This document shows, piece by piece, positions 1,712-47,729 of a stretch of DNA of 64,000 nucleotides. Source of the stretch: Candidatus Nanosyncoccus sp. (GTDB taxonomy: Bacteria > Patescibacteriota > Saccharimonadia > Saccharimonadales > Saccharimonadaceae); contig JAZUOY010000015.1 in NCBI GenBank assembly GCA_045604885.1, forward strand, positions 1,424 to 65,423, in the 5' to 3' direction. The stretch's first letter is position 1. Each line of letters starts with the position of its first letter. The notes below the pieces were generated by a model. It searched no databases. It was not told the DNA's origin and saw only the letters and a program-made list of their open reading frames with translations. The position numbers and the translations under genes are program-made.

Positions 1712-1723
1712 TTCCCAATTACG

Positions 1724-1754
1724 TTGCCCCGAGCAGAAGCCCGGGGCAATTTTT
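1724..1754 (+). terminator. Intrinsic terminator after hppA
   Basis: ttgccccg...cggggcaa stem followed by ttttt. Confidence 0.8.
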
Positions 1755-1764
1755 GTTCAAAATC

Positions 1765-1839
1765 TGGTGATCTCTGCGAGAGTCGAACTCGCATTGACGG
1801 GATGAAAACCCGTTGTACTAACCGTTATACTAAGAGACC
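1765..1839 (-). tRNA. tRNA-Glu (TTC)
   Basis: Cloverleaf on the minus strand; anticodon arm ACGGG-TTTTCAT-CCCGT; TTCGA T-loop; CCA end. Confidence 0.96.
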
Positions 1840-1877
1840 ATGACAGTATTATAACAAAGAAACAGTGGAAATGCAAA

Positions 1878-2348
1878 TTAACTTGCGTTCCACCAACAAT
1901 CATAAGTGTATTTTACTTCGTAGTCGGTTTTGCCATAAGGAGGGTAAGGGAAAATCTGAATGGAGGTATGATTAGTGTTACAGAAGTACTGTCCGTCAAA
2001 ATAACCTCTGTAATCAGCATGCCTTCCATTATCGAAAAGCAACAATTCGCGGAGGTAAATCCTCTGGAAACCATAATCATGGTAGGTCAAAAAAGCCGTC
2101 GCGTAATCTTCTTCCGGTAAGCCTGAAACGAAAATATCATAATAATAATTCTCGTAATAATCCTTGGCGAGTTCCTCTATCTTCTCTTCCGCAACTCTTT
2201 CTGGATTGAAAATGGCGTGCGCCCCCAAGTTAAAAAACACTAGACAAATGCAGAGAATAATCGCGAAAGTCGTAAATTTGCGCATAAAAGGCTCCAGCGG
2301 AAAATTAAGAGGCTCCGCCTTGTATGGATATGAATAATACCTCCGCAT
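1878..2348 (-). CDS. Hypothetical protein with N-terminal TM helix
   Basis: 156-aa ORF with hydrophobic FAIILCICLVFFNLG segment and a Tyr-rich outer part. Confidence 0.75.
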   Translation of the reverse strand: MRRYYSYPYKAEPLNFPLEPFMRKFTTFAIILCICLVFFNLGAHAIFNPERVAEEKIEELAKDYYENYYYDIFVSGLPEEDYATAFLTYHDYGFQRIYLRELLLFDNGRHADYRGYFDGQYFCNTNHTSIQIFPYPPYGKTDYEVKYTYDCWWNAS

Positions 2349-2420
2349 GATAAGACTATTTTAACATAAAAATTTTTCAGAATACAATAAAAACAAATAC
2401 CCTTATGATATAATCAAGTT

Positions 2421-3854: not shown

Positions 3855-3875
3855 TGATGAATAATTGGAGGTAAT

Positions 3876-4961
3876 ATGTTTCACAAAGAAAGTCTAGAAA
3901 ATACAAAAGTCCGTAATCAAACCGTGCTAGTTCGTGTTGACTATAATGTACCGATGAAAGATGGGAAAGTAACAGATGATCTACGTATCAGGGCCAGTTT
4001 GCCGACAATTGAGCTACTGGAGAAAAAAGGTGCTAGACGTATTGTTCTGATGTCGCATTTGGGTAGACCGAAAGGAGAAAAGCATCCAGAATTATCATTG
4101 GCACCCGTCGCAGAAAGGCTAAAACGGCTTTTGCCAGAGAGGAAGGTGTTTTTTGTAGCAGATGTTTCTGGGCCAGATGTGGAGGAGGCAGTAGAAAAAT
4201 TACCAGTTGGAGGGATTCTATTATTGGAGAATTTACGCTTCTTCCTCGGAGAAGAGGCTAACTCGTCAGACTTTGCAAGAGAAATTGCCGAGTCTACCCA
4301 TGCGGATATTTTTGTTCAAGATGGCTTTGCAGTGGTCCATCGGGCGCATGCATCTACCTCTGCGATTACCTCAGAATTACCTTCTGTGGCAGGGCTATTA
4401 TTAGAGAAGGAAGTAACCACTTTGCAGACAATTTTGGAGAAGCCAGCACATCCCTTTATAGTTGTAATTGGTGGAGCAAAAGTTGATGATAAACAGCCTC
4501 TGATTGACAAATTCTCTAAAATTGCCGATAAAATCGTCGTAGGAGGCAAGATTGCCGCAGATGGCTATACTAGCTCACATGAGAATGTCTATGTCGCAGA
4601 AGACTTCAGAGAGGCTACAGAGGGGGAAGATGCCGGAAAAAAGCTGGATATTGGACCGATTTCCTCTGAGAAAATCTGTGATCTCTGTAAAAATGCTAGA
4701 ACTGTCCTCTGGAATGGGCTGCTAGGAGCCGCAGAAAGGCCAGAATTTGCCATTTCTTCGCAAGAGTTGGCAGAGACACTAGGTAGAGCAGAAAAGCTTA
4801 CTAGTATCATCTGTGGAGGCGATACGACCGGTTTTGTAGAAAATTTACAGAAAAATGAGCCAGATTTGCATTATTCGTTAATTTCTACTGGTGGTGGGGC
4901 AGCACTAGAACTTCTCTCAGGAGTGGAATTGCCAGGTATAGAGGCGCTAGACAATAAATAG
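3876..4961 (+). CDS. pgk: Phosphoglycerate kinase
   Basis: VRVDYNVP, SHLGRPKG, LLENLRF, HRAHAS, GGAKV, ISTGGGA motifs. Confidence 0.98.
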   Translation: MFHKESLENTKVRNQTVLVRVDYNVPMKDGKVTDDLRIRASLPTIELLEKKGARRIVLMSHLGRPKGEKHPELSLAPVAERLKRLLPERKVFFVADVSGPDVEEAVEKLPVGGILLLENLRFFLGEEANSSDFAREIAESTHADIFVQDGFAVVHRAHASTSAITSELPSVAGLLLEKEVTTLQTILEKPAHPFIVVIGGAKVDDKQPLIDKFSKIADKIVVGGKIAADGYTSSHENVYVAEDFREATEGEDAGKKLDIGPISSEKICDLCKNARTVLWNGLLGAAERPEFAISSQELAETLGRAEKLTSIICGGDTTGFVENLQKNEPDLHYSLISTGGGAALELLSGVELPGIEALDNK

Positions 4962-27705: not shown

Positions 27706-29514
27706 TTATTTCTTCTTCAACGCCTCGCAGTTAGCAATTAATCGTTCGCGGAAAGCGTCCTGAGCAGCGGAACGGTTGTCATTATTGCCATGCCAAGTTT
27801 CTAGGGCTGGGGTTTGCAAGGCACGGGAGAACGAGAAAGTAACAGGCCATGGGAAAGGACCATTATTGGTGACGGCTTGTAGGTTGTTGGTGGCTTGTTC
27901 TACATTCTGACCGCCAGATAGGAACACGACACCAGCAATGTTTTCTGGTACATGTGACTTGAGTACATCGGCAGTGGTACGACCAACCTCTTCTGGCGTA
28001 GATTGAACTGGATATTTTTTGCCAGCTAACACCATATTGACCTTGAGGATGCAAGCGTCTAGCTTGACGCCGGCCTTGGCTAATTCATCAAAGAGCATAT
28101 CTAAGACCTTGCCTGTAATATCGGCTGACTGTTCTAGGGTGTAATTACCATCATAAACAACTTCTGGTTCTACGATCGGTACAAGGTTGTTGTCCTGACA
28201 GAGTTTAGCATATTCGGCGAGGAGCTGACTGTTTTTGGTGAGAGCCATTTCGCTCGGCTTGCCCAAGTCAATTTCGTAAGCGGCACGCCATTTGCAGAAA
28301 CGTAAGCCCTGAGCATAATAGGCTGGTAAGCGTTTCTTAAGGGATTCTATGCCTTTGGTGTATTTTTCATCGCTATCTGGGAAATCTGCTAAACCTTCAT
28401 CTACTTTGACGCCTGGAACGATCCCATGGGCAGTCAAATAAGAAACGAAATCACGTCCATCGTCAGCTTTTTGGTGGGTAGTTTCATCAAAGAGAATTAC
28501 AGCATTAACATAGCGCTCCAGCTCTGGGGTAGAAAGTAGAATGTTACGATAGTCGCGACGATGCTGCTCGTCATCTGGGATCATTAGACCTTGGAACTTC
28601 TGATGGATGTTGCCACCAGATTCGTCAGCTGCGAGGATGCCCTTACCAGCGGCTACCATAGTTGCGGCAACTAGGCGAATATCGGTCTCTTCGGTTTTTT
28701 GCGTGTTGGCGATGGATTTAATTTTTTCATACGGTAAAGTACCAGAGAGGGAAGATCCTTCGGCGTTGATTTTGGCGTAGCGTAGAGCATCCTTAACGGA
28801 AACCCCCTTTACTAAAGCTCCAAAAACAGTAGCAGCAATAATGGAATGTACGGTCAAGTGGGTCATAAGATCTGTACGTTCAACACGCCAAAGCTGAGTA
28901 TGACCATTTAGAGTAATATCTTGATCAGAAATGTAGCAAATTGAAGCGTTAGTATTGATTCCGCTCAAATCTTCTTCGCTGAAGATGAGACTTGCCATTT
29001 CTAAGAGTTTGCGATCGGCATCCGTCAAATCCTTTGCGGCATAAACAGCTACTCGTGTCCTAGAAGACATTGCGAGGAAGTTTTTTAGCTCTTTGATCAG
29101 GCCGTCAGTCACGCCAGTGGTGCGGTCAATATAGATCCAATCTACAGCTTCTTCTGGATTAATCCAGGATGTTTCCTCTCTTTCGTTTGGGACGAGATAA
29201 GAAATCTTGTTGCCATGGCAGAGCATATAGCGGTAACCATCAGCGTGTTGACCATTGGAAACGATTTCTCCACCAGCGAATCCAAGTTTCGCTCCGGCGA
29301 TGCGAGCAGATAGATCATAGCGATTAAGCACCTCTAAGGCAATTGCGGCACCACCGTAAATACTAATTCTACGGAAGAACTTATGCGAGCTACCGTCAAA
29401 ACCAAAGTCTAACCATGGTGTGCCATGCTCGTCTGTTTCAAAGTTGTTTAAGCGTTCGTCCATCCGGAGATAGACATCTTTTAGTACATTCCCAATTATC
29501 AATATATTACTCAT
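27706..29514 (-). CDS. fba: Fusion of a degenerate PfkB-like domain and class I fructose-bisphosphate aldolase; probable start 29514
   Basis: C-terminal half has KGILAADES, KVDEG, FCKWRA, IVEPEV, ILKVNMV, FLSGGQ, FSFSRALQ; N-terminal half has PfkB-like IGNVLKDVY and GGAAIA. Confidence 0.9.
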   Translation of the reverse strand: MSNILIIGNVLKDVYLRMDERLNNFETDEHGTPWLDFGFDGSSHKFFRRISIYGGAAIALEVLNRYDLSARIAGAKLGFAGGEIVSNGQHADGYRYMLCHGNKISYLVPNEREETSWINPEEAVDWIYIDRTTGVTDGLIKELKNFLAMSSRTRVAVYAAKDLTDADRKLLEMASLIFSEEDLSGINTNASICYISDQDITLNGHTQLWRVERTDLMTHLTVHSIIAATVFGALVKGVSVKDALRYAKINAEGSSLSGTLPYEKIKSIANTQKTEETDIRLVAATMVAAGKGILAADESGGNIHQKFQGLMIPDDEQHRRDYRNILLSTPELERYVNAVILFDETTHQKADDGRDFVSYLTAHGIVPGVKVDEGLADFPDSDEKYTKGIESLKKRLPAYYAQGLRFCKWRAAYEIDLGKPSEMALTKNSQLLAEYAKLCQDNNLVPIVEPEVVYDGNYTLEQSADITGKVLDMLFDELAKAGVKLDACILKVNMVLAGKKYPVQSTPEEVGRTTADVLKSHVPENIAGVVFLSGGQNVEQATNNLQAVTNNGPFPWPVTFSFSRALQTPALETWHGNNDNRSAAQDAFRERLIANCEALKKK

Positions 29515-29567
29515 GCTTTCAGTATAGCACAAGATAATAAAAGAGGTCAAAAAATTATGAAAATCAC

Positions 29568-35180: not shown

Positions 35181-35320
35181 ATTTGCTTTGCAAATTGTAA
35201 AACGAAACTTGGTTTCGTTTTTTTGTTGCTTCGTAACAAGTAGCTTCTTGAGTCTATCCCAACGTAATTGGTATGGTATAATTTCAATATGTATCACCGA
35301 TATAATGCGGAGAGACGATA

Positions 35321-37387
35321 GTGACATCTGAACTTATTACCTCTCAGCCAAGAATAAGAAAGGATCATGATTGGTTGGGTGACGATGTGCCAGAATTTTC
35401 TGCTGATAAGAAAGAGAAGGATTTTAGAGGCGTTTCTTTTAATAAGCATTTTGTAGAGTGCTTTTCTGACAAAATGTACGAAAAAATTCTTAGTGATAGG
35501 GAAGTATTAGCTAGTGTAGGCGACAATTATTTACATCAATATGACGATAACTCTTCCGCCTCAGCTGTCAAGCTAGCCTTTAAGGAATCACTAGACCATT
35601 ATATTTTGTCACAACTTACCAGTGAGAATACCGAAAAATTTATACAGAGTGAAGCGTTTTCAAATTATTCATCATATATCATGAATATTGCAGAAAATAA
35701 TTTCATGAAAGTTAGAAATGGCGAGTTATTTTCTGAAATTGTTGCTAATCCAGTTCTGAGAAATGAAAAAATGCGTGAGCTTATTTTGGAAAAAACATAC
35801 CCGCCAGAAAAAGCGCGACGATATAGCGATAGTATCAAAAAACAAATTGATTTTTATCAAAAAGGGCTTTCCTCAGTAGAAGAAATTATGGACAAGCGGG
35901 GGAAATTATCGCAAAAACAGGTGGATTATCTTGGTGATTATTTATATTCCAGCAAAAAATATGATGACGGATTGGCGAAGAAATTTGCAGAGTATTGTTT
36001 TAATGAGATTCATGCAGATTCTGATATTAAGCCGTCCACGCAGATGATTGGTGCGCTGACGAATTACTTTGCGTATTGTTATTCGTTGGATGAAAAGGTC
36101 AGACGGGATAGCAGATTTATTATTGCAAATTATTCTCATGAGAGGACAGACGAATCTGGCAATATTCAGAGAAAATCAGTCCATGTGGGGGTATCTACTT
36201 CATTTGGTTGCGTATTAGAACAGAATCATTTTACTCGGATGTCGCTTATGTCGGATGACTCATTGAGCAAATCGCGAACTAACACCTATAACGATATTTA
36301 TCGCTTGATGATGGTGTCATTTCACGAATTAACCCATGATCATCAGCGAAATCAAATGATGGCAGGAGATGATAGTAGCAGTAGTATGTCCTATATTTTG
36401 CATAATGTCTTGATGGAAGATAAAAGAGAATGTTTTCCACGAGTTGGGAAAGACGGCTCTATTCACGAGACATCATATTACAAGGCCAATCACGATTGTG
36501 ATGAAATAGAAATTGAGGCAGATGAAGAGGCATGGCGTCAGTGTCGAACTTTTTTAGTCAATCATCGTCAGCAATACGCTTGGGATCATCATGATGATGA
36601 TATTTATCGGCAGTATTCCGAGCAGAGAGGAAAATGTCTGGATAATGAAGAAGAAGTGCGAACGAGGCGTGCTTTTACGAGAAAAATTGATGCGACTGGG
36701 CAAGAAATGTCATATATCCAGTATGATATTGAAAACCTCAAGTCATTTGTGGCGAATGACCCAAAATTACTTCAGAGATTTCCCCAACTTAATAAATATC
36801 TTGATCAGGACGGAAATTTAAGGTCAGAATTATTATTAGAAAAGCGCATTGGGGGAATTGATACGAGTGATAATTTGTATCATCGCACGGACGATTTTGG
36901 AGTGGAAGTTGGAACTTATATAATCACTAATAACGAAGATGTGAAAAACATTATCAGTCATATTAATAACAGTACATTATCTAGTCAACAGGTGCAAAAT
37001 TTAATGACGAATCTTTGGAATATAATACATCAAAATGCGCTCAAAGTACGTCAGTTGAAGAAGGCTAATTTTGATAACTATGACGAGACCGAGACGCGTA
37101 TGGGGTTCACACCTCAAGAGATGAAAGATGCATTTTTGAAGCAATATCTCAGACAATTGTATAATTCTGTGCATATTGCAGAGGTGATACGCGGTACACA
37201 TCCAGAATTAGGAGACTATATTACTAGGCAAGAAGAGGGATATATGAGTAGTTATTATGATGAACTGCAACATGAAGGCAAAGTTAAGTACGAAGAAGCG
37301 AAGAAAATATATGACAAATATCAGCGTACGAATAATCCTGTTCTTATGAAGATTGCTACAAAAATTGCAAGAGATTATCAATTATGA
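35321..37387 (+). CDS. Large hypothetical protein with an HExxH zincin-like motif
   Basis: 688 aa, no signal peptide or TM; SFHELTHDHQ followed by EIEIEADE. Confidence 0.75.
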   Translation: MTSELITSQPRIRKDHDWLGDDVPEFSADKKEKDFRGVSFNKHFVECFSDKMYEKILSDREVLASVGDNYLHQYDDNSSASAVKLAFKESLDHYILSQLTSENTEKFIQSEAFSNYSSYIMNIAENNFMKVRNGELFSEIVANPVLRNEKMRELILEKTYPPEKARRYSDSIKKQIDFYQKGLSSVEEIMDKRGKLSQKQVDYLGDYLYSSKKYDDGLAKKFAEYCFNEIHADSDIKPSTQMIGALTNYFAYCYSLDEKVRRDSRFIIANYSHERTDESGNIQRKSVHVGVSTSFGCVLEQNHFTRMSLMSDDSLSKSRTNTYNDIYRLMMVSFHELTHDHQRNQMMAGDDSSSSMSYILHNVLMEDKRECFPRVGKDGSIHETSYYKANHDCDEIEIEADEEAWRQCRTFLVNHRQQYAWDHHDDDIYRQYSEQRGKCLDNEEEVRTRRAFTRKIDATGQEMSYIQYDIENLKSFVANDPKLLQRFPQLNKYLDQDGNLRSELLLEKRIGGIDTSDNLYHRTDDFGVEVGTYIITNNEDVKNIISHINNSTLSSQQVQNLMTNLWNIIHQNALKVRQLKKANFDNYDETETRMGFTPQEMKDAFLKQYLRQLYNSVHIAEVIRGTHPELGDYITRQEEGYMSSYYDELQHEGKVKYEEAKKIYDKYQRTNNPVLMKIATKIARDYQL

Positions 37388-37428
37388 TCACCTGTCTTCT
37401 CTAGTATCATGTATGGTATAATTTAATT

Positions 37429-38751
37429 ATGAAAAAATTTAATACCTCTCCAATTTCTGGCATGCAAGAGCTTTTGCCGCCTTTGCAAGCTGTTTTCAAT
37501 AATTATAAAGCAAAAATTGCTGAGGTATATCATCTGCATGGATTCCAAAATATAGAAACGCCTATGATTGATCGCAATGAGATTTTATTTGCGAAAGCTG
37601 GCGGTGATACTGAGAAGCAAATTTATCGCGTCATTAAGACGGATGAGACGGCGGAAGCGTCGTCGCAATCACTTCGTTTTGACCATACGGTGCCGCTAGC
37701 AAGATATGTTGTGGAGCATGAAAGCGAGCTAAATTTTCCGTTTCGCGTTTCTCAAATTGGGCGCAATTTTAGAGGGGAACGAGCACAAAAAGGGCGTTAT
37801 CGCGAATTCTATCAGTGTGATGTGGATGTAATTGGGCGCAATGCTTTACCGATTTTCTACGATGCACAGGTAATTGATACTTTTTATTCTGCAGTCAGTT
37901 CATTCGTAAAGACGCCAGTAAGAATCCGCCTCAATAATCGTAAATTCGTCTCTGGTTTTATTGAGGCGCTTGGAATATCGGATTTAGCGAGTGATGTTTA
38001 TAGTATTATCGACCATGCAGAGAAAGTTCCAGAAGAAAAAACAATTTCTTTTTTGAGGGAACTTAATATCCCAGAAGAAATTGTTGTAAAAATTACAACA
38101 TTTATTCATACGCACGGTAATTATGACGAGATTGTTACCATGTTAAAGGAAATTGGTATGATGGATGCAGACGGCATGGTAGAAAATGTGCAAATGAGAG
38201 ATGGTCTAGCGGAGCTAAAAATTGTTACGGGTGAGCTAGCTAAAATTGGGATGAAAGCTGAAAATGTGGAAATTGATTTAAAGATCGTGCGCGGGCTGGA
38301 TTATTATACGGGAACTGTGTTTGAGGGAATCTTACCAGAGTACCCACAGGTAGGATCCATTGGTGGCGGTGGCCGTTATGATAATCTTGCAAGTAATTTT
38401 TCTGATCAAAAGTTTCCTGGAGTTGGTGCGTCTATTGGTTTGTCGCGGCTATTTTATATTTTGACGGAAAATAATCTTCACGACGAAGAATCCAGGACAC
38501 CAATAGATTATGCAATTATTCCGATGACGTCAGAGCAGAATGAGATGGCATATAAGATAGCGGATATAATTCGTAACCGTGGTGAATCTACGGATATTAT
38601 TTCAGTGGAAAAGAAACTCAGCGATACAATGAAAATTGCTTCACGAGTAGCAAGCTATGGAATTGTACTTGGTGAAAATGAAGTCAAAAATAAATCTTGC
38701 ATGGTAAAAAAATTTGCAACTGGTGATCAGAATTTGATGAAACTAAGCTAA
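37429..38751 (+). CDS. hisS: Histidine--tRNA ligase
   Basis: GGDTEKQIY, LRFDHTVP, GRYREFYQCD, VRGLDYYTG, GGGGRYD motifs. Confidence 0.98.
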   Translation: MKKFNTSPISGMQELLPPLQAVFNNYKAKIAEVYHLHGFQNIETPMIDRNEILFAKAGGDTEKQIYRVIKTDETAEASSQSLRFDHTVPLARYVVEHESELNFPFRVSQIGRNFRGERAQKGRYREFYQCDVDVIGRNALPIFYDAQVIDTFYSAVSSFVKTPVRIRLNNRKFVSGFIEALGISDLASDVYSIIDHAEKVPEEKTISFLRELNIPEEIVVKITTFIHTHGNYDEIVTMLKEIGMMDADGMVENVQMRDGLAELKIVTGELAKIGMKAENVEIDLKIVRGLDYYTGTVFEGILPEYPQVGSIGGGGRYDNLASNFSDQKFPGVGASIGLSRLFYILTENNLHDEESRTPIDYAIIPMTSEQNEMAYKIADIIRNRGESTDIISVEKKLSDTMKIASRVASYGIVLGENEVKNKSCMVKKFATGDQNLMKLS

Positions 38752-38790
38752 TTTGACTTCCTATTCCTACTTTCATCTTATCATTCTAGC

Positions 38791-38997
38791 ATGCGTTCGT
38801 ATCCACTATCGTTTGTGTTGGGAGGATACTTTCGCTTGGATAATAGCAAATTATATAATCAAAAAGCATACGGTAACTATTGGTCTACTACTGTCTACTC
38901 GGACGCTAATGGGTACAATCTAGAAACAAGTGGTTCATCCGTCAATCCGACAGACTATAGCAGAAAACTTCATGATTGGGGAATTCGTTGCGTCTAA
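38791..38997 (+). pseudogene. Orphan CLec/FISUMP-like C-terminal cassette 1
   Basis: RSYPLSFVLGG...YWSTT...WGIRCV; no N-terminal domains or signal peptide. Confidence 0.7.
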
Positions 38998-39437
38998 GTT
39001 CTACTATTGATTCGGTCTTATCCACTGTCGTATGTATTGTCAGGTACTTTCTACTGGAATAGTAGTCAATTATACAATCAAGGTGTCTATGGTAGTCGGT
39101 GGTCTAGCACGATATATTCCAAAAATAATGGATGTCGTTTACTTATGGATAGCTCTACTGTTGATCCAGCAGATAATGTTGGCAAATTCTATGGATTCAC
39201 TGTTCGTTGAAATTAAAAATATCATGCTAATTGCGATATATAACGAAGCGCCCTACCAACATATTTATTAAAATAATCCGACGTTCCGACAGAGGAATCA
39301 AGCAGCATCATGTAGTATGCTCGTGCACGAGAATTGACAGTAGCAGGATACCAACAACCGTGAACTCCCTGATTATATACCCTACCAGTATCCCAGCCGA
39401 AACTCCCTCCCAACACAAACGATAGTGGATACGAACG
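38794..39437. repeat. Perfect 32-bp inverted repeat (38794-38825 / 39406-39437)
   Basis: cgttcgtatccactatcgtttgtgttgggagg and its exact reverse complement. Confidence 0.97.
39007..39210 (+). pseudogene. Orphan CLec/FISUMP-like C-terminal cassette 2
   Basis: RSYPLSYVLSG...RWSST...YGFTVR then TGA where cassette 1 has TGC (Cys). Confidence 0.7.
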
Positions 39438-39440
39438 TAT
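39222..39440 (-). pseudogene. Orphan CLec/FISUMP-like C-terminal cassette 3 (inverted)
   Basis: Frame extends upstream of the tracked ORF as IRSYPLSFVLGG...VGRALRYI; collinear with cassettes 1 and 2. Confidence 0.7.
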
Positions 39441-39465
39441 ACTAGCAGATGATATATAAAGGGAT

Positions 39466-40170
39466 CTATCTTTTTAGGCCAGCGTCTAAGTATTTTTTGA
39501 CATAATCCCATCCCCAATTATTGTCAAAGCCGCTAGTTGTGAAATTGCCAAATTTAAAATATGGTAGTCCGCCACCAATTAAATTCCAAGCGCGTTCGGT
39601 ATCCTCTGTTACTTTAGACAAGAGCTTGTGCTCAGAAATACAACTTTCAAAAGTCTCACTTAAACCGATCGACTGACCAATTTTCAGCCAGTAGTTATCT
39701 GGTAAATCTTCTATTGGTTCTGAGGTTTTTGATACGCCGATTCCTTGTGATTGATAATCATCCCAGAGTGCTGCCAGTGCAGCATGATAGTATTCCCAGA
39801 ATTTCCCCTCGTCTTTTGCGCAATAAATTGCTTCAGCGCTATTGCGGGACATTTCGCTATGATTTTCGCCGTATTCGTAGAGTATATCTGTTACGCGAAC
39901 TTCATATAAAATATCTTTCCCGACGATATAATCTTTTTGGAATTCGTCCTCATGCTTCATGATTGCGCGCGAAAAAGCGCTACAGTATGGACAGGCAAGA
40001 TCAGTATACATAATATAATAGTTTTTTGCATCTAATGCTCCGATAGTAGCGTTTTCGTCCCAGACACTATCTGAATGATTGGTCTTTGTAGAAGAGCTAT
40101 AAATAAATAATGCCACCAGCAAAACCGCAATAACACCAATAATAATCCATTTAATGGCTTTTTTCATCAT
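39466..40170 (-). CDS. Membrane-anchored DsbA/thioredoxin-fold protein; probable start 40170 or 40167
   Basis: YTDLACPYC active site, AEAIYCA, GGGLPYF; AAGGAGG RBS. Confidence 0.88.
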   Translation of the reverse strand: MMKKAIKWIIIGVIAVLLVALFIYSSSTKTNHSDSVWDENATIGALDAKNYYIMYTDLACPYCSAFSRAIMKHEDEFQKDYIVGKDILYEVRVTDILYEYGENHSEMSRNSAEAIYCAKDEGKFWEYYHAALAALWDDYQSQGIGVSKTSEPIEDLPDNYWLKIGQSIGLSETFESCISEHKLLSKVTEDTERAWNLIGGGLPYFKFGNFTTSGFDNNWGWDYVKKYLDAGLKR

Positions 40171-40795
40171 CCTCCTTTTTCTTCTGACGCCACTGTTCAT
40201 CTTTTATTATAACATAGCTCTCTACGCCAACCCTTTTGATTGACAGTAATAAGATGATAATTGCGACACCAGTTAAAATGCCTGATATTGCTCCGGCTAT
40301 CGCATAACTTCCACTAGAGAAAATAGAACCGATAATGGGCGTAATTAAGGCAGTGCCACAAGTAGGGCAGCCACTTCCAAGTAATGCAAGCCCAGCTGCA
40401 ATACCGGCGTTCTGCACAGATGAGGCAGAATCATTTTGTTCGTTTTGCTTAGGTTTGGTATTATTGAGTCGTTTTTTCCAGACTAGAACAATGAGAGAAA
40501 TAAGAGTTGCCTGTAAAAACGTAATAGAAAATAATAATAGCCAGTCCCAGAAAGTCTTGCCAACTCCAAAAAGTGATAAGAGGCTATCTCTTAAGATGGT
40601 AATTTTGCCTTCTAGATCGGTAGCGAAGAACAAATTAAGAGGTCCAAATCCGCCCGATAAGAGGCTAAGTAGGATACCAAATATTACAAAAACCATTAAA
40701 AAAACAATCCAGAAACGAAGTCTTCTAGTGGCAAGTATGATGCCGAGTATGGCAAGATGCCATTCATCACACCATTTTGCGATCTTTTTTTGCAT
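40151..40795 (-). CDS. Integral membrane protein with a CxxC motif (GCPTCG)
   Basis: Four hydrophobic segments; overlaps the DsbA-like gene. Confidence 0.8.
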   Translation of the reverse strand: MQKKIAKWCDEWHLAILGIILATRRLRFWIVFLMVFVIFGILLSLLSGGFGPLNLFFATDLEGKITILRDSLLSLFGVGKTFWDWLLLFSITFLQATLISLIVLVWKKRLNNTKPKQNEQNDSASSVQNAGIAAGLALLGSGCPTCGTALITPIIGSIFSSGSYAIAGAISGILTGVAIIILLLSIKRVGVESYVIIKDEQWRQKKKEDDEKSH

Positions 40796-40949
40796 AAACT
40801 TATTATAGCATCTAGAAGACTAACTTAGAAAAATATGGGAGATCAATTTAATTTCCTATAATAATATTAAAATTTGTCAAGGTGATTTTGTTTGGTTGCC
40901 TCTGTAAATTACAACAATTTTATATCATCAAAAATCTTAAAAATCAATA

Positions 40950-41089
40950 TTGACACAGTATTTGCTCATGCTAAAATAGAATTAGGGTAAGGGCGAAGTT
41001 GAGAGCCGTCTTTCACCCGTGGAGTTTCTAGCTTAGATCAGTTCACCTAGAAACGCAAAAAAGTGCACCCATAAAAAGGTGCATTTTTT
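40950..41089 (+). ncRNA. Candidate small RNA: promoter, two hairpins, terminator
   Basis: TTGACA (40950) and TG-TAAAAT (40972); stems 40985-40995/41007-41018 and 41024-41031/41047-41054; terminator 41057-41089; no ORF. Confidence 0.45.
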
Positions 41090-41144
41090 ATGAAAATAAC
41101 GACTAGCTATTGAAAAAAATCACAAAATGTGATATAATGAGAGT

Positions 41145-41876
41145 ATGGAACGCTTTTCTAGAGAAAAATACGAAGATTTTTTAAAAAAGATAGATTTAGC
41201 GAAATATCGAGAGAAGTATGCTAAGGTGAAGACTGTGGAGATGGATTTGCCATACGAAATTCAGGCTTTGCCAACAATTTATGCTGAGTACTGGGATAAC
41301 GTGAACCATAGAGAGGAACCACTTTCCTATGAGGAATATTACAAGTTATATTGGAATTCTTGTAAAGATGAGATTATGGCATTTCGTAAGAAAACTGGTT
41401 TTGGCGAAGATTGTGATTGTTATGAACGTGGCTTAGAAGCAAGAATCTATCGCACCTGGGCATCTTTAATTACTCAGATTCAGGGTGGATACGTAGCTGA
41501 GGAGGTTTTTGGCAAGGGAAGCGTCAGAATGAGCCCTGAGCTTGATCGTAAGAAAATTGATATTATGATCGTTAATAAGGATGGCAGTGAGCGTTTGCGG
41601 ATTCAAGTCAAAAAAGTTACTCATCGTCCAGAAATTGCCAGGATGCATAAGAATGTGAGAAATGAAAATGGTTCCGTAGATTTGTATTATGTAGTACCAT
41701 CTCCGCGTAATTATGAGCATCCGACCTATCTCATTAATGGTCGTAATCACAAAAGAGGCGAATTACGTCCATTTACGAAAGATTTCGTGAAATGGAATCC
41801 GGCGACCGCAACTATGGATAGACTAGATAATGGATTTATCATTTTCACAAAGAATGCTTTTTTGGGACTAGAATAA
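41145..41876 (+). CDS. TaqI-family type II restriction endonuclease
   Basis: KY..VKTVEMDLP, GLEARIYRT..S..TQ and PELD...ID...IQVKK match my recollection of TaqI-family motifs. Confidence 0.8.
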   Translation: MERFSREKYEDFLKKIDLAKYREKYAKVKTVEMDLPYEIQALPTIYAEYWDNVNHREEPLSYEEYYKLYWNSCKDEIMAFRKKTGFGEDCDCYERGLEARIYRTWASLITQIQGGYVAEEVFGKGSVRMSPELDRKKIDIMIVNKDGSERLRIQVKKVTHRPEIARMHKNVRNENGSVDLYYVVPSPRNYEHPTYLINGRNHKRGELRPFTKDFVKWNPATATMDRLDNGFIIFTKNAFLGLE

Positions 41877-43062
41877 TTTGGTAGTCGGGGCTTAGCCCCT
41901 TTTGCGTTAAAAAGGATCGTAGGCGATAGTCTAGAATTTGGTCAATGCTCGGTTTGATGCCCAGCTCCTGACATTTTTTGTAAGCAGTAGATTTTCGTGA
42001 GACAATCTCTGGGATTTGGACAAGGATATATTTATTATTGCGTCCATCTTCCAGGTTGGTCTCGTAAACTGCTTGACCAGTTGATCCAGACCCAGCAAAA
42101 AAATCTAAAATGATAGAGTTAGAAGTATTAGTCATGCGAATAAAATATTTTAGCATTTCTACTGGCTTCGGAGTATCAAAAATCCCTTGTAATCCTAATC
42201 TTTTGAGGTCATGTGTGCCTTGCCGTGAATAAAAATTAAGAATTGATGGAACATTATCTTCACTTTCTGTAAGGTATTTGATGGCGTAAGGGCGACCGTT
42301 TTTGAAATTGAGGCGATGTTTTTTCGCAAGTTCTATAAAATGTTCATCGGTAGCCCACCCTCTTGTCGGTAAAGGACTGAGGTGAAGATTGATAGACGGA
42401 ATATCGACTGCTCGGGGGGTACTAGGAGTAGAAAGATCTACGGCGAAAAAAATCCTACCCTTGTTATCTAACTGTGAATAATTTCTCAGCCACGTGATGT
42501 TTTGCTCATGACAGATAGACTTGATTCGTTTCGTAAGAGTTTTTTCTGCAGCGGATCTGCCTTGTTGCTTGAAAATAGTTTTAATTTCATTTTGAAGATC
42601 ATTGATCATTTGTTTTTGCTCCGGAATATCCGTGCGATGTACTATAAATTTCCGAATATTCTTCCTGTTTTTTGCATAACAGAGGACATATTCATGAACG
42701 GTGTTAATTAATTTGGAGTTACTACGCTGAGCTTGTTTGGTGATAAAGGTGCCAATAAAATTTTCGCTTCCAAAAACGCCATCACAGCAGATTCTCAGAT
42801 GAGGAAATTCGTTATCGTCTATAGAAATTAAAATCACCGCATCATCCGCCATGAGTCTTCGAGCTGCCTCTAAACGTGCGTGTATAAAAGCGACCCAATC
42901 ATTGCTGGTATTCTTATCTTTGTAGCTTTTCTGGGTCTGAGTATTATATGGTGGGTCGATGTAGATTAAGTGAATTGCATTCTGGTATTTCGTTAAAAAA
43001 TCAGAATCTTGCATTACATCAAGATTGTCTCCAATATAGACTTCATGATTAAGCGATTTCAT
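41845..43062 (-). CDS. Beta-class (Mod-like) amino DNA methyltransferase; probable start 43062
   Basis: IYIDPPYN precedes TPKP and LDFFAGSGSTG; convergent with and overlapping the REase. Confidence 0.92.
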   Translation of the reverse strand: MKSLNHEVYIGDNLDVMQDSDFLTKYQNAIHLIYIDPPYNTQTQKSYKDKNTSNDWVAFIHARLEAARRLMADDAVILISIDDNEFPHLRICCDGVFGSENFIGTFITKQAQRSNSKLINTVHEYVLCYAKNRKNIRKFIVHRTDIPEQKQMINDLQNEIKTIFKQQGRSAAEKTLTKRIKSICHEQNITWLRNYSQLDNKGRIFFAVDLSTPSTPRAVDIPSINLHLSPLPTRGWATDEHFIELAKKHRLNFKNGRPYAIKYLTESEDNVPSILNFYSRQGTHDLKRLGLQGIFDTPKPVEMLKYFIRMTNTSNSIILDFFAGSGSTGQAVYETNLEDGRNNKYILVQIPEIVSRKSTAYKKCQELGIKPSIDQILDYRLRSFLTQKGLSPDYQIILVPKKHSL

Positions 43063-43102
43063 TAAGGTCATTATAACAAAAAAGGTCTATTGCGACCAAT
43101 TT

Positions 43103-43187
43103 TGGTAGCCGAGACGGGACTTGAACCCGTATGAATTTCTTCATTCGATTTTAAGTCGAACGCGTATACCAATTCCGCCACTCGGCC
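43103..43187 (-). tRNA. tRNA-Leu (TAA)
   Basis: Anticodon arm TTCGA-CTTAAAA-TCGAA, long variable arm, CCA end. Confidence 0.96.
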
Positions 43188-43440
43188 AATTTTGCTTGGA
43201 GGACTATTCAACCCAAATGTTGAACCATCCCTTATTATTTTATCAGAATATCTTTGTAGTGACAAGTCGGCGGAGTTAATGGAATATACTCCTCTCTCTA
43301 GAATAGAGGTGGAAAGGGCTAGGGCGATGGAGGATTATGTCTTATAACGTACCAACTAAAACCTAATTAAACCATTTGTTACCTAGCATAGTTCTCCCAC
43401 GTCTCTCTCAAGCGCCCGAAGGGCGCTGTATTGGTTAGCC

Positions 43441-43579
43441 TGGTGAAATCGGGCGCTCATCAAACCCGTTTGTTTGGAATGATAGTGTATATCTAATACT
43501 GGAGATTACTTTGGTTGGAGTGCGGTCCTCTTCACAGGCAGGTATTGTCTTTTTAATGGTGAAATCGGGCGCTCATCAA
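43441..43579 (+). repeat. 23-bp direct repeat tggtgaaatcgggcgctcatcaa (43441-43463 / 43557-43579)
   Basis: Exact match at 116-bp period; weaker similarity continues for about 25 bp. Confidence 0.93.
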
Positions 43580-43844
43580 GCCCTTCCTGTTTAGATATAT
43601 GAGTATACCCTACCTAGGGACTCCCAGGCTACCCCGTTTAGGACGAAATACGTGCCTTATTTGCTAGCATCTTTGGTGATTTCGTCTGGTAGTATCACTC
43701 GTGTAGTTTCTTTGGATTTATTTTACTAACAGATTAGTTCATATGATAGCAGGGTTTTCCCGCCCGGCCTGCTTTTAATTAAAACACTCTACCGCTAGCA
43801 TTGTTTCTCTGATGTTTTTTCTTGGTGGCTGTTGATGCTAGTGC

Positions 43845-43873
43845 TTGCCATGATTAAAATTATCTGGTATAAT
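43845..43873 (+). promoter_or_regulatory. Sigma70-type promoter
   Basis: TTGCCA-17 bp-TATAAT with a TGn extension. Confidence 0.8.
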
Positions 43874-43881
43874 CATGGCAT

Positions 43882-44003
43882 CATCCAATTCCCACATTTA
43901 CAACTCAAACGGTAACCCAGAGACCTACATAGCGTCCAGAAAGGATGTCACGTAGGTACATAGGGCACTATGCTCTAGGTTACCGAAAAGTGGGAGTTGG
44001 ATG
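43882..44003 (+). ncRNA. Candidate structured RNA / leader (multibranch)
   Basis: Nested stems 43882-43895/43990-44003, 43910-43922/43973-43985, 43923-43928/43952-43957, 43959-43963/43968-43972. Confidence 0.6.
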
Positions 44004-44053
44004 CTAACACCTCGTGGCATCCTTTTTGTGGATGTTGCAGAAAGAAGGATACT

Positions 44054-44887
44054 ATGCAAGACCACAGCGATAATCAACAACCCCAGCCTTACCGAGTCAG
44101 AGTTGGCTGTTTCGTGACACTTAGAAACAATGATGATAATCGCGTCACTAAGTATAAAGTAGTAAGGTCGCTATACTCGTCAAATAATGCGTGGGCGGAA
44201 ACAAGCATTAAGGAGACTCCTACTTCTGGGAGTCTTTCTGTAAGTTCCCCACTTGGAGCTAGTCTGATTGGAAAAAAAGCTGGTGACATTGTTGGCAAAT
44301 ACAAAGTCATGCTAATAGAAGGTGGCGACCATGTAGTGCAAAATATTCAAGACTCGTATGAGCAGGATACCGCTGATAAAGCTAATAAGCTAAAAATGCT
44401 ATTGGAAAAGATACGGTCTGGAGAATGGGTCAAAGCATACGTTACGCGCATTCATCACGTCTGCATCCCAGTCAAAACTCGTCGCGCCAACATTAAGACC
44501 TCATTCCTTCCTGACGGTGTTATGGAGTCTATCGTTATATCGAACATGGCAGCCGAGGCAACAAATCTCTATAGGATAGATTTGTTTCTCTATCTCGACG
44601 ATGACCATGAAATTGGTGCCATGGCGGAAATGCTAATTGAGCGAGACACAGTGAGTGTTCTATGTAGCGACGTTCATAATCCATTGCCAAAAAATTGCTT
44701 AAACGAGAATTATGATTATGTCGTTGCTGATGAACAATCCTCTGAAGAGGGGATGGAATTAGTTCATGGTTTAGAAGTAAAATTATCGCCTGAAGACAGT
44801 AGCTTCACATGTAGGACCGCGCCTCACTCGACAACTAATCACCACTACATGAGAATAGTCCACGAGGACAGTTGTGAGTGTTATTAG
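44054..44887 (+). CDS. Protein with an N-terminal GreA/GreB C-terminal-like domain plus an unknown domain; probable start 44054
   Basis: VRVGCFVTL...LSVSSPLGASLIGKKAGDIV; aagga RBS before ATG 44054. Confidence 0.7.
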   Translation: MQDHSDNQQPQPYRVRVGCFVTLRNNDDNRVTKYKVVRSLYSSNNAWAETSIKETPTSGSLSVSSPLGASLIGKKAGDIVGKYKVMLIEGGDHVVQNIQDSYEQDTADKANKLKMLLEKIRSGEWVKAYVTRIHHVCIPVKTRRANIKTSFLPDGVMESIVISNMAAEATNLYRIDLFLYLDDDHEIGAMAEMLIERDTVSVLCSDVHNPLPKNCLNENYDYVVADEQSSEEGMELVHGLEVKLSPEDSSFTCRTAPHSTTNHHYMRIVHEDSCECY

Positions 44888-45467
44888 TGTTTTTGGAAAA
44901 ACGGAATACGCAAGTAGTAGCACGATTGGCGTCGCTATGTTTTTCGGTATACTTGCAACAGTTTTTTTATTTTTCCTAGCTAGCTCTAAAAACCACAACA
45001 AAACGACTAGAAATAGAAAGCACAACACCTTTGTGTATCGACCTCGCTCGATCAATGATGTACAGGAGCACCAGAGAATTAGACGCTGGGAGATAAAGCG
45101 CGCTGCTTTTGAGGAACAAAAGAAAACACCATTCTTCAAAGACTGGAAGCGCGAGCAATATCAGTGTCAATATGGTAAGTGTGCTTGGTGTAGGAAGTCG
45201 ATAGACCTTCATTCGCCCGATACCCAAGTCGATCATATTAAGCCATTGATGTGGTGGGGGACTAATGAGTACGATAACTTGGTTCTAGCTTGTAAAGAAT
45301 GTAATGAGGAAAAAGGCGATAGTCAATTTGGCTGGGCTGGTGCTAAAGGCATGCCTGGCGAGAATAGAAAACCAGCCTGGATTAGGCCTAATAGATGCTG
45401 TAGAAATTTCAAAGAGCAGAACTCTCAGACAGTATCATATACTACTCTGAACTCAGACAAGCCTTAG
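44874..45467 (+). CDS. Membrane-anchored HNH endonuclease
   Basis: N-terminal TM helix; CAWC...VDHIKP...GTNEYDNLVLACKECNEEKG. Confidence 0.88.
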   Translation: MSVISVFGKTEYASSSTIGVAMFFGILATVFLFFLASSKNHNKTTRNRKHNTFVYRPRSINDVQEHQRIRRWEIKRAAFEEQKKTPFFKDWKREQYQCQYGKCAWCRKSIDLHSPDTQVDHIKPLMWWGTNEYDNLVLACKECNEEKGDSQFGWAGAKGMPGENRKPAWIRPNRCCRNFKEQNSQTVSYTTLNSDKP

Positions 45468-45569
45468 AGAGCCTCTTATGGCCTCACAGAGGGTGTTTTG
45501 ACGGGGTGTTTTTGAGGTTGTCTTTCTCTTCGGAGGCTTTAGCCGACGAAAGCGCGTTAGCGCTTGCCC

Positions 45570-45598
45570 TTGCCTTAGTGTTTTAGACTTGATACAAT
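45570..45598 (+). promoter_or_regulatory. Sigma70-type promoter with no downstream ORF
   Basis: TTGCCT-17 bp-TACAAT with a TGn extension. Confidence 0.72.
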
Positions 45599-45604
45599 GA
45601 AGTC

Positions 45605-45990
45605 CTACACAACGGTATCAGGTAAGGAACGCTGGTACTGTGCTAGCTGAAATAATGCTAGGAGGAAACGCACCTTCCCGTGGTGGGCTGGCTAATGATT
45701 TCCTCGGATAGGTTGCCCATTGCTAAAACAGCCTTGATGGTAGCAGTAATGCCTGGACTAGTAGGCATGAAGTATCATCTGCCACACTATTGTAGCAAAA
45801 GGCGGACAATGGTTTTAGCGAATAATCCGATTCCAAGCCTGACGAAAGCAGGTTGCCGATGGACCTTCTAGCTGCCTTGGCACTAGGTCTGTAGGCAGAG
45901 GGATTATTTGCTATGCCAAAAAAAGCTAGCATAAATACAGGCGAGCAACATGAAGCTGGGAGAAACCTCGGCAAGCTGGTGACCTACCTT
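45605..45990 (+). ncRNA. Candidate large structured ncRNA (~385 nt)
   Basis: About ten stems, many with G-U pairs, downstream of a clean promoter; no credible ORF. Confidence 0.55.
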
Positions 45991-46108
45991 AAGTCTATAG
46001 AAGAGAAAAATATAACGCGATTCAAGGGTGATTCTTCCAGTAGTATGGTTGAGCCTGTTAGCGGCATCACAATTCTCTTTTAGAAGTGTTTCTGGTATAA
46101 TGATGGTA

Positions 46109-47677
46109 ATGTCATTGCTGCCAGGAGAGATAGATAAGACCAAGCTACGTTACATTGTTTACGTGCGCAAATCTACTGATGAGAAGGGAAAGCAGGAGAG
46201 GTCTGTTGAGGACCAAATCGCTGATTGCCTAGACTTAGCCAAACGTAGAGGGTTAAATATTATTGGTGAGCCTATTGTTGAAAAGCGTTCTGCTAAGGTT
46301 GATGGAGGCAGACCACTTTTTGCTAAAATGATTAAATTAATTCGTGACGGTAAGGCTGATGGCATTATTTCCTGGCATCCGGATCGTTTGTCTCGTAATC
46401 CGATTGATGCGGCCACGATTGTAGACATGCTGGACAAGAACATAATCAAAGACCTTGCCTTCCCTACTTGTGAGTTTTCAAACGACTCCAGCGGCAAGAT
46501 GCTACTCAATATATTATTCGCTATCTCAAAGCAATATTCGGAGCATATCAGCGAGGGTGTTACTCGTGGGCTTCGTAGAGGTCTTCAAGAAGGAAAATCT
46601 CAAGGTCGTTACGTCTGGGGTTATACCCGTAGCAAAGAAACTGGACTATATGAGCCAAGTGAATATTTTGAGATTGTCCAAGAAGCATGGGAGATGAAGG
46701 TGAACGGTGCTACGGATGCCGCAATTCTAAAGTTCTTAAAGAAAAATAATCTACGGAGAGCGGTCGAATCAAATCCTGGAAGATTTATAGAGCCTGTCAA
46801 GGAAACCCCAAAGAACATCTTCAAGAACCCAATTTACTATGGTGTTTTGGAGCAGGCAGGACAAGAAGTGGACCTAATTGAAGTTACTGGTGGCGCTTTT
46901 CAGCCTATGATTACTTATGAAACCTTTGCCAAAGTACAAGCTATGGAACGTAGCGGCAAATCGCATGGTGGGCGCAAGAAATCTGGTGGTATTTTCTACC
47001 CACTAAAGCACATGGTAACTTGTGGCGTCTGCAACCAAACTATGGTCGTCTATAAAAGCCGTAGCGGCCATGGGAAACGTGCTAACTACTTGTATTTTGA
47101 GTGTAGGAATAAAGATTGCACTCGTAGTCCCAAGGCTATAAGAGCAAGGGAAATATTTGAGCCGCTATTTGAAGCTGTCCGCCAGTTGCAGTTTACTGAG
47201 GAAGAAATAGAGAAATACAACCAAGAGATTGATAGCTTTAGCGAAGAGAGAATTGTTGAGCTACGTCAGGAAAAGAATAGTATAACTGCCGCTATTGCCC
47301 ACAAGAACAAAGAACTTGAGAAACTGTCTCTTAGCACACCCAATTTGACTAGTAGAGCATTAACTCTAATACGAAAGAGGATTGATTCGCTGTCCAATGA
47401 ACTAGATGAACTTGAGGAGAGCTCTAAATCTATTGATGCTCAAATAAAATCAGCTCAGCGAAGTAAGGTTTCTACTGAGCAAGTGTTGAACCTCCTAAAA
47501 ACGCTTCCTGACAAGATGGAGAATGGCTCCGCCGCTGAAAAAGATGCGATTGCCCGATTATTGTTATTGAACCTCACTATTGACGCACAAAAAAGGCCTC
47601 ATTTCCTCTGGAAAGAGCCTTTTGCTAGTCTGCTTGAATCCCGAAAAGGTGATTCTGGAGGCGCCTACCGGAATTGA
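46109..47677 (+). CDS. Large serine recombinase (resolvase, recombinase, zinc ribbon and coiled-coil domains); probable start 46109
   Basis: YVRKST catalytic motif, DRLSR, CGVC...C...C zinc ribbon, coiled coil; own TG-TATAAT at 46096-46101; last codons are antisense to tRNA-Cys. Confidence 0.93.
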   Translation: MSLLPGEIDKTKLRYIVYVRKSTDEKGKQERSVEDQIADCLDLAKRRGLNIIGEPIVEKRSAKVDGGRPLFAKMIKLIRDGKADGIISWHPDRLSRNPIDAATIVDMLDKNIIKDLAFPTCEFSNDSSGKMLLNILFAISKQYSEHISEGVTRGLRRGLQEGKSQGRYVWGYTRSKETGLYEPSEYFEIVQEAWEMKVNGATDAAILKFLKKNNLRRAVESNPGRFIEPVKETPKNIFKNPIYYGVLEQAGQEVDLIEVTGGAFQPMITYETFAKVQAMERSGKSHGGRKKSGGIFYPLKHMVTCGVCNQTMVVYKSRSGHGKRANYLYFECRNKDCTRSPKAIRAREIFEPLFEAVRQLQFTEEEIEKYNQEIDSFSEERIVELRQEKNSITAAIAHKNKELEKLSLSTPNLTSRALTLIRKRIDSLSNELDELEESSKSIDAQIKSAQRSKVSTEQVLNLLKTLPDKMENGSAAEKDAIARLLLLNLTIDAQKRPHFLWKEPFASLLESRKGDSGGAYRN

Positions 47678-47729
47678 ACCGGTGTAAAAGGTTTTGCAGA
47701 CCTCTGCGTAACCACTCCGCCAAAGCGCC
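47656..47729 (-). tRNA. tRNA-Cys (GCA)
   Basis: GGCGCTT...AGAGG-TCTGCAAA-ACCTTT...AGGCGCC-TCCA. Confidence 0.95.

Follow-up and report, generated by a model that had tools for sequence, protein, structure and literature searches.

We analysed a 64,000-nt stretch of DNA from Candidatus Nanosyncoccus sp. (contig JAZUOY010000015.1), referred to below as the window, and give all window coordinates in its own numbering. A perfect 32-bp inverted repeat lies there between hisS, the gene for histidyl-tRNA synthetase (HisRS), and a gene for a DsbA-like protein with a thioredoxin fold. The 714-bp gap between these two genes is occupied by three short coding cassettes, c1, c2 and c3 (Table 1), and the repeat arms are the in-frame 5' starts, or heads, of c1 and of c3, which converges on c1 and c2. 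As judged from sequence comparison, the inverted repeat may be the conserved 5' junction of two members of a three-cassette silent archive, with the heads acting as crossover blocks for recombination; we assign this reading a probability of about 0.5. Its main evidence is a DNA-level identity confined to the c1 and c3 heads, together with related genomes in which different bodies are joined at the equivalent block.

Sequence identity confined to the cassette heads

The 32-mer (CGTTCGTATCCACTATCGTTTGTGTTGGGAGG) occurred exactly twice in the window with up to three mismatches allowed, and no match was found in 100 dinucleotide-preserving shuffles of the window. The outer eight bases of the two arms agreed at six of eight positions, so that the repeat measured 40 bp with two mismatches. 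Arm identity ended at GGAGG, beyond which c1 reads ATAC and c3 reads GAGT. A repeat finder reported a wider arm pair of 115 nt with 72% complementarity, a consequence of each arm opening one of two homologous coding cassettes. A degenerate copy at the head of the middle cassette, c2 (39013-39044), was identical at 25 of 32 positions, and four of its seven differences were synonymous. A pattern scan of the window and direct inspection of the letters confirmed what an earlier sequence-only reading had described: exact reverse-complement arms of 32 bp, their extension to 40 bp with two mismatches and a stop after GGAGG, and a middle copy with mostly synonymous changes.

The three cassettes aligned without gaps over about 66 codons, all three beginning at an equivalent codon. 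Outside the head, their nucleotide identity was 55-61%. The proportion of synonymous differences (pS) between bodies was 0.63-0.81, i.e. saturated, and that of nonsynonymous differences (pN) was 0.37-0.43, indicating that the cassettes diverged as coding sequence under protein-level constraint. In the head, c1 and c3 showed no difference at about 9.7 synonymous sites, and c1 and c2 showed five at about 9.8. The longest exact run in the in-frame c1/c3 alignment (61% identity) was 32 nt, a length reached in none of 100,000 column shuffles. Since synonymous sites were frozen only in the c1/c3 head and the bodies were saturated, the identity is maintained at the DNA level. The c1 and c3 bodies are far too divergent for the head identity to be the result of a recent duplication, and codon constraint is also excluded. 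Homologous conversion needs flanking homology; thus, given the homology requirement of RecA, a 32-bp island between flanks of about 57% identity would be hard to make in this way. These comparisons point to the c1/c3 head as a block that itself serves as the place of exchange, or that is selected as DNA. The suggestion that the repeat reflects a recombination site or recent homogenization, rather than protein selection alone, is thus supported by the synonymous freeze limited to the c1/c3 head and by the relatives that join bodies at the equivalent block.

hisS, c1 and c2 lie in one common reading frame with single TAA stops between them. The left arm begins 40 bp after the end of hisS, and the DsbA-like gene ends about 25 bp from the right arm, in another frame. 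Promoter and terminator prediction at the cassettes yielded no promoter-like site ahead of c1 or c3 and no terminator-like site between hisS and c1. In the window and four related loci, Rfam detected tRNAs as the only structured RNAs. When c1 alone was modelled with AlphaFold2 and a 47-sequence alignment, its fold was not confident (predicted local distance difference test, pLDDT, 41), so the cassette is unlikely to serve as the source of a 68-aa protein standing by itself. The window held no other copy of the cassette and no N-terminal part of a FISUMP-like domain, the domain to which the cassettes are related (see below).

The only tail DNA common to the window cassettes is TTCGTT, and therefore c1 and c3 could recombine with each other only by one crossover in the head, which would invert the 580-bp segment between the arms. 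Such an inversion would be in frame, with no evident expression consequence alone. Because neither border carries a constant 5' part, a promoter-like site or a recombinase gene, it would only exchange two silent bodies. The proposal of a shufflon-like arrangement, taken in its functional sense, was therefore not upheld: neither repeat adjoins a constant 5' gene part, and there is no promoter-like site and no linked recombinase.

The step that would matter is a putative exchange with other heads, including that of a full-length gene. We propose that the head is where cassettes trade bodies with one another and, it may be presumed, with an expressed full-length gene at another genomic site. Crossovers recurring at the head would keep the heads identical by concerted evolution, and selection would keep the bodies diverse. 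Candidate enzymes would be RecA, working on a stretch of 32-40 bp, or a site-specific recombinase encoded elsewhere.

Cassette family and recombination in related genomes

To place the cassettes, c1 was compared with PF09603 (Fib_succ_major; TIGR02145, FISUMP domain) and matched positions 125-186 of 187 with an E value of 0.011 and 16.5 bits, against a curated gathering cut-off of 33.9 bits. Neither c2 nor c3 matched PF09603, and no cassette matched an NCBIfam family. Among full-length relatives found in related loci (L numbers), PF09603 matched the L016 protein at its C-terminus (positions 50-186, 27.3 bits, E 5e-6) and the L018 protein with 19.2 bits, and did not match that of L008; one of 13 long cassettes matched (E 0.068). 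The family of cassettes and adhesins thus appears to be a distant branch of PF09603 that lies below the cut-off, rather than a certified member. c1 aligned to the last ~66 aa of the full-length secreted proteins of 558-676 aa near hisS or dsbA in L008, L016 and L018, which shows the cassettes to be homologous to the far C-terminal end of these proteins; each matches the C-terminal third (~66 residues) of a FISUMP-like surface-protein domain. The copied residues are probably the ligand-binding tip of a C-type-lectin-like surface protein.

A profile search with cassettes from the window and related loci returned 195 proteins. The best 120 of the 195 were short open reading frames (ORFs) of 68-141 aa, most on contigs shorter than 2 kb. 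A HMMER search of cluster representatives gave 5,720 matches at E<=1e-3 and 1,203 at E<=1e-10, and about 99 of the best 150 were short by listed length. Full-length proteins that end in the module (P0157, P0188, P0189, P0190 and P0230) were also among the HMMER matches. P0157 (569 aa) reads ...CPKGWMLPTAGSQADNKSGSFQNML...PLYFVRSG...GFPLRCLSTVIDI, and its last ~115 residues correspond to the 'long' cassettes, which gene callers had started at an internal Met. When the 'constant' part of the long cassettes served as query, all matches were short ORFs. In-frame tandem arrays of 3-10 copies of the C-terminal module alone were found in P0137 (202 aa), P0139 (282 aa) and P0141 (930 aa); P0141 carries a Bacteroidota-like motif, FFPASGYR...GFPVRCVQ, so such arrays may also occur beyond the Saccharibacteria. 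The full-length variants P0215 and P0270 shared their first 514 residues exactly and showed 44 differences in the last ~250. An exact look-up of the window HisRS gave no match, a word-based protein search with c1 returned only c1 itself, IMG/VR contained no relative of c1 or of a typical family member, and no sequence relative of the cassette profile was found in PDB. A literature search returned no description of such cassettes in Saccharibacteria or for the FISUMP-like domain; a paper on 'hypervariation' in Gracilibacteria concerned an unrelated PTD repeat (PMC6851277).

By its HisRS relatives, the window belongs among the Saccharibacteria of animal guts; the best match was a metagenome-assembled genome from sheep ileum (77% identity), followed by Candidatus Nanosyncoccus. 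Full-length secreted proteins of about 560-680 aa are encoded near hisS in L008, L013, L016 and L018, in L008 also beside the dsbA pair, and share the C-terminal module ...PMYFVRSG...GFPVRCVAR. The members of this pair, a CPYC-containing DsbA-like protein and a membrane protein that overlaps it and has a CPTC motif, are kept beside hisS in many Saccharibacteria, where they adjoin a Cys-containing FISUMP-like adhesin or cassettes of that adhesin. Relative to hisS, the pair is inverted in the window, L001 and L015 compared with L008. In L001, the closest relative, a methyltransferase-like ORF and no cassette lies between hisS and dsbA. L015, with a HisRS only 52% identical, keeps the window layout: hisS, a cassette on the plus strand, a cassette on the minus strand, and then dsbA and the membrane protein gene, both also on the minus strand.

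In relatives, cassettes occur in both orientations and are dispersed among housekeeping genes. Four to five surround gyrB-gyrA in L081, L082 and L102, four occur in L022, and pairs occur in L019, L093 and L107. Within each genome, the heads, and often the tails, were 90-100% identical in DNA and the bodies about 50%, and the head sequence varied between genomes; L015, L019 and L022 show this pattern of conserved head and tail around a body of about 50% identity. In four runs that contain L022, head bins reached about 6-25 times the summed contig depth of the flanks, and the sequence continued in many different ways on either side of the head. We take this to mean some ten copies or more in each genome or population. 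Joints in these depth data were also considered as possible inversions and rejected, since they were dominated by paralogous copies and the joint on 'opposite strands' rested on 33 nt.

Two sets of loci bear on how bodies are exchanged. In L094-L101, which belong to one species, an 820-bp module comprising cassette 1, a spacer and the head of cassette 2 was 99-100% identical and was joined to four different bodies with different downstream genes. The join point lay exactly after ...TTAGCTTTTGTCCGTAGTGGG, and the left context (a tRNA or a mobile element) assorted independently of the body. By their sequence, these joints match the expected products of single crossovers in the head. L082 and L102 were 93% identical over 9.2 kb and carried five cassettes at the same positions and in the same orientations; the flanks, heads and tails were 90-100% identical, and the bodies of four of the five cassettes were only 45-55% identical. 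This pattern corresponds to a body-only replacement, as would be produced by two-sided conversion.

The cassette-bearing modules were bounded by a conserved motif, ...ACGTCACGTTTGATACAA..., followed by a hairpin (AAGGCGTTTGCCC...GGGT.AACGCCTT). The boundary lay directly after a tRNA 3' end in some loci and after unrelated DNA in others, and it may be what is left of an integrative element's attachment site.

With somewhat less confidence than for the window repeat itself, we suggest that Saccharibacteria, and possibly other carriers of FISUMP-like proteins, shuffle about 10-25 silent, 5'-truncated tip cassettes per genome. The cassettes, present in both orientations, would recombine genome-wide through homogenized heads of 20-60 bp, and through tails where present, and so diversify the host-binding adhesin tip of the epibiont. 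The window repeat would then be one active crossover site.

Evidence against the proposed silent archive and alternative explanations

Several results weigh against the reading of the repeat as a crossover junction of silent cassettes. The terminal Cys of the family was lost in c2 and c3, which is compatible with decay. No sequencing run was listed for 38300-39900, and in the one run found for 35300-45000, depth over 38540-40159 was zero; the same run does contain pieces of 43.1-45.0 kb, in a few small contigs whose identity reaches 99-100%. Degenerate patterns found no copy of the head in species-representative genomes or in JGI (Joint Genome Institute) metagenomes, and the source genome is apparently not among the searchable ones. 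No expressed full-length gene with the window head was found in the 64 kb of genome available or in scans of public genomes and metagenomes. In L105 and L014, a full-length gene stands next to an inverted cassette (22 bp apart in L105), and the two heads either have synonymous differences or lack a common repeat; neither these loci nor any other thus documents exchange with an expression site. The full-length genes of L104 and L106 have no cassettes nearby. Finally, a convergent pair resembling c1/c3 in L107-L112, with heads identical at 23 of 24 positions, was identical and in one orientation in all six loci returned.

A first alternative is that the cassettes are inert relics: decaying 3' fragments of a full-length adhesin gene that once lay in the hisS-dsbA gap, with the identical head as the trace of one recent local recombination. 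The full-length genes of L008, L013, L016 and L018 in the equivalent neighbourhood, the lack of cassettes there in L001, the missing cysteines and the absence of a promoter, a recombinase and an N-terminal part at the window cassettes are all consistent with it, as is the finding that some relatives' cassettes are invariant across samples. However, the three fragments begin at the same codon, and their frames of about 66 codons have stayed open despite saturated synonymous divergence, with a nonsynonymous rate (dN) well below the synonymous rate (dS). The convergent layout has also been kept in L015 in spite of its distant HisRS, thousands of similarly truncated ORFs carry homogenized heads, and gene conversion would be an unlikely source of the identity island. 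We therefore consider decay unlikely, though a serious competitor.

The arrangement could instead be an invertible element with site-specific recombination, comparable to a shufflon or to Mycoplasma vsa; an unlinked tyrosine or serine recombinase would then recognize the site of 32-40 bp and flip the segment, or larger chromosome segments between dispersed heads, to switch the expressed body. The position of the repeats at the in-frame 5' starts of convergent cassettes and their abrupt identity boundary fit such an element. In relatives, cassettes alternate in orientation with heads of 52-57 nt that are 96-100% identical both ways, and in L094-L098 a different body comes with a different downstream flank, the outcome predicted for single reciprocal crossovers. 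Against it, the 32-mer has no conserved internal dyad, neither border has a constant gene part, and the same cassette pair was not found in two orientations in the six loci of L107-L112.

No recombinase adjoins the cassettes. Among the non-shadow ORFs of at least 110 aa in the window, no tyrosine recombinase (PF00589) was detected, and the only recombinase was a 549-aa large serine recombinase (LSR; 46028-47677), whose 3' end overlaps tRNA-Cys. The earlier statement that no invertase is adjacent and that this LSR is the nearest recombinase was correct, and a Pfam scan of the window ORFs placed it about 6.6 kb from the cassettes. LSRs lie near cassettes in L019, L022 and the window, at distances of 0.15-6.6 kb, which counts in favour of site-specific inversion: in L022, two neighbouring LSR genes (448 and 534 aa; 947-3897) end 150 bp from the four-cassette cluster, and in L019 an LSR 40% identical to that of the window lies 3 kb from cassettes. 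This association may reflect mobile elements inserting near such loci.

A further point in favour is a related cassette in L083 that lies beside a 190-aa tyrosine recombinase, just upstream of whose gene a 124-bp segment is flanked by 27-bp inverted repeats (GATGTAACACTTTGTTGA...). The segment had one orientation in L083 and L085 and the other in L084, L088 and L090, and it resembles a switch that inverts in the manner of fimS, carried by an element associated with Saccharibacteria. This recombinase was nevertheless rejected as the cassette enzyme: its own 27-bp repeats are unrelated to the cassette heads and, judging by those repeats, it acts on the separate 124-bp switch, and no homologue of it was found in the window or in L001-L082. 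Taken together, a dedicated inversion system at these repeats seems quite improbable.

Two further explanations deserve little credence. A diversity-generating retroelement (DGR), in which the cassettes would be template and variable repeats (TR and VR) diversified at adenines by a reverse transcriptase, would suit the lectin-like domain, the C-terminal variable region ending GF.(L/V)RC, the G+C-rich tail block of relatives, the confinement of the P0215/P0270 differences to the C-terminal part (often at N/Y/S/D positions) and the fact that DGRs are common in bacteria of the candidate phyla radiation, but is highly improbable: the mismatches fell on all four bases in every cassette pair tested in four genomes (37 of 82 at A for c1-c3), the cassettes were 55-60% identical with indels and showed no A-specific TR/VR signature, and Pfam found no reverse-transcriptase family among window ORFs of at least 110 aa. 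An assembly artefact, or a miniature inverted-repeat transposable element (MITE) with 40-bp terminal inverted repeats, is hardly credible either: the 660-bp unit is bounded by inverted repeats identical at 38 of 40 positions and relatives' contigs often break at heads, but the flanks are syntenic with L015 and L001 (hisS ... dsbA), the repeats are the in-frame starts of homologous coding cassettes, and an element like a MITE or an insertion sequence was rejected because the unit has no flanking target-site duplication, is single-copy in the window and did not appear in public scans.

Neighbouring features and comparison with known systems

Table 1. Coordinates of the repeat, the cassettes, their flanking genes and two features of related loci (window numbering unless a locus is named).
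Feature	Position	Strand	Remarks
Left arm of the perfect 32-bp inverted repeat	38794-38825	+	Head of c1; encodes RSYPLSFVLGG
Right arm of the perfect 32-bp inverted repeat	39406-39437	-	Head of c3; same reading register as c1
Outward 8-bp extension of the left arm (CTAGCATG)	38786-38793	+	Holds the ATG of the c1 ORF
Outward 8-bp extension of the right arm (CTAGTATA on the minus strand)	39438-39445	-	ATA in place of the c1 ATG
Segment between the arms, 580 bp	38826-39405	.	Bodies of c1, c2 and c3; would be invertible by an inter-arm crossover
hisS (histidyl-tRNA synthetase)	37429-38751	+	Left flank
Cassette c1, 68 codons and stop	38791-38997	+	5'-truncated; terminal GIRCV retained
Cassette c2, 67 codons	39007-39210	+	Homology from 39010; ends ...GFTVR-stop where the family has Cys
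Cassette c3, 72 codons	39222-39440	-	Converges on c1 and c2; terminal Cys replaced (..RALRY..)
DsbA-like thioredoxin-fold protein	39466-40200	-	Right flank; CPYC motif
Membrane protein	40151-40795	-	CPTC motif; after the DsbA-like gene
124-bp segment	L083:6950-7072; L084:1550-1800; L088:1237-1414		
Module-boundary motif and hairpin	L094:7790-7860; L083:5640-5700; L022:4815-4850		

Other features of the window were noted in passing. The stretch from tRNA-Leu (43103-43187) to tRNA-Cys (47656-47729), 43103-47729, contains a GreA-like ORF, an HNH endonuclease and the 549-aa LSR, and is probably an integrated element. A TaqI-family restriction endonuclease (41145-41876, plus strand) and an N6/N4 DNA methyltransferase (41845-43071, minus strand) are convergent with a 32-bp overlap and appear to form a complete type II restriction-modification pair. 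Immediately following tRNA-Phe, an ORF of 688 aa (35321-37387) has an HEXXH motif (FHELTHD) and no Pfam or NCBIfam match, and may be an uncharacterized metallopeptidase. In a 614-aa ORF (27706-29550), a class-I fructose-bisphosphate aldolase domain covers only residues 293-612, and the N-terminal ~290 residues have no family match; L094 holds a similar protein of 633 aa.

Taken alone, the window offers a modest finding, a real and non-random repeat whose local inversion would have no obvious phenotype; the family-level pattern is the interesting part. Saccharibacteria are obligate epibionts whose genomes measure about 1 Mb; surface proteins govern how they attach and which hosts they can use. 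If the proposal holds, a recombination-driven archive of alternative adhesin tips would let them change host binding or escape phages and immunity, and would resemble the systems of Mycoplasma, Neisseria or Anaplasma, though with another protein fold and in another phylum. The frequent contig breaks at heads would be explained as well, with most family matches on contigs shorter than 2 kb and several longer contigs ending at a head.

In the G segment of phage Mu and the C segment of P1 (Gin/Cin), two convergent alternative 3' segments likewise lie inside inverted repeats of about 34 bp at a constant/variable junction. The window, however, lacks a phage context (no relatives in viral contigs) and has neither a neighbouring serine invertase nor an Sc-like constant part. 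Another parallel is with the orphan C-terminal modules of CdiA/Rhs polymorphic toxins, which are also 5'-truncated 3' modules with a short conserved junction for recombination onto a full-length gene, but the cassettes are free of toxin and immunity content and are dispersed in both orientations.

The vsa locus of Mycoplasma pulmonis (HvsR, 34-bp vrs) and the R64 shufflon (Rci, sfx) share with the window an in-frame inverted repeat of about 30 bp at the 5' start of silent 3' segments, where a crossover swaps C-terminal parts. Unlike them, the window lacks a linked recombinase and a constant 5' part at the border, its alternative orientation was not observed, and the relatives' cassettes are scattered among housekeeping genes rather than clustered.

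Further likenesses are found with silent-cassette gene-conversion systems: the 'functional pseudogenes' of Anaplasma msp2/p44, Neisseria pilS/pilE, Borrelia vls and Mycoplasma genitalium MgPar. The cassettes differ from these in protein family (a FISUMP-like lectin tip) and in host (Saccharibacteria), and the window and the public scans yielded no expression site with a shared head. In addition, compared with the pilS, vls and msp2 type, tail homology in the window is too small for two-sided conversion, and the head is perfect in c1/c3 and 78% identical in c2. In anatomy the cassettes come closest to these systems, with the vsa locus and the R64 shufflon also near. All four systems likewise keep promoter-less, 5'-truncated copies with a hypervariable centre between short conserved blocks; in the cassettes, blocks at both head and tail are well conserved in L015, L019, L022 and L082. 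Their copies are likewise dispersed in both orientations and sometimes form contiguous in-frame arrays, as in P0137 and P0139 and in c1/c2, which are one stop apart. Whereas the flank changes with the body in L094-L098, the replacement of bodies with flanks kept, known from these systems, is matched between L082 and L102, though not in the window.

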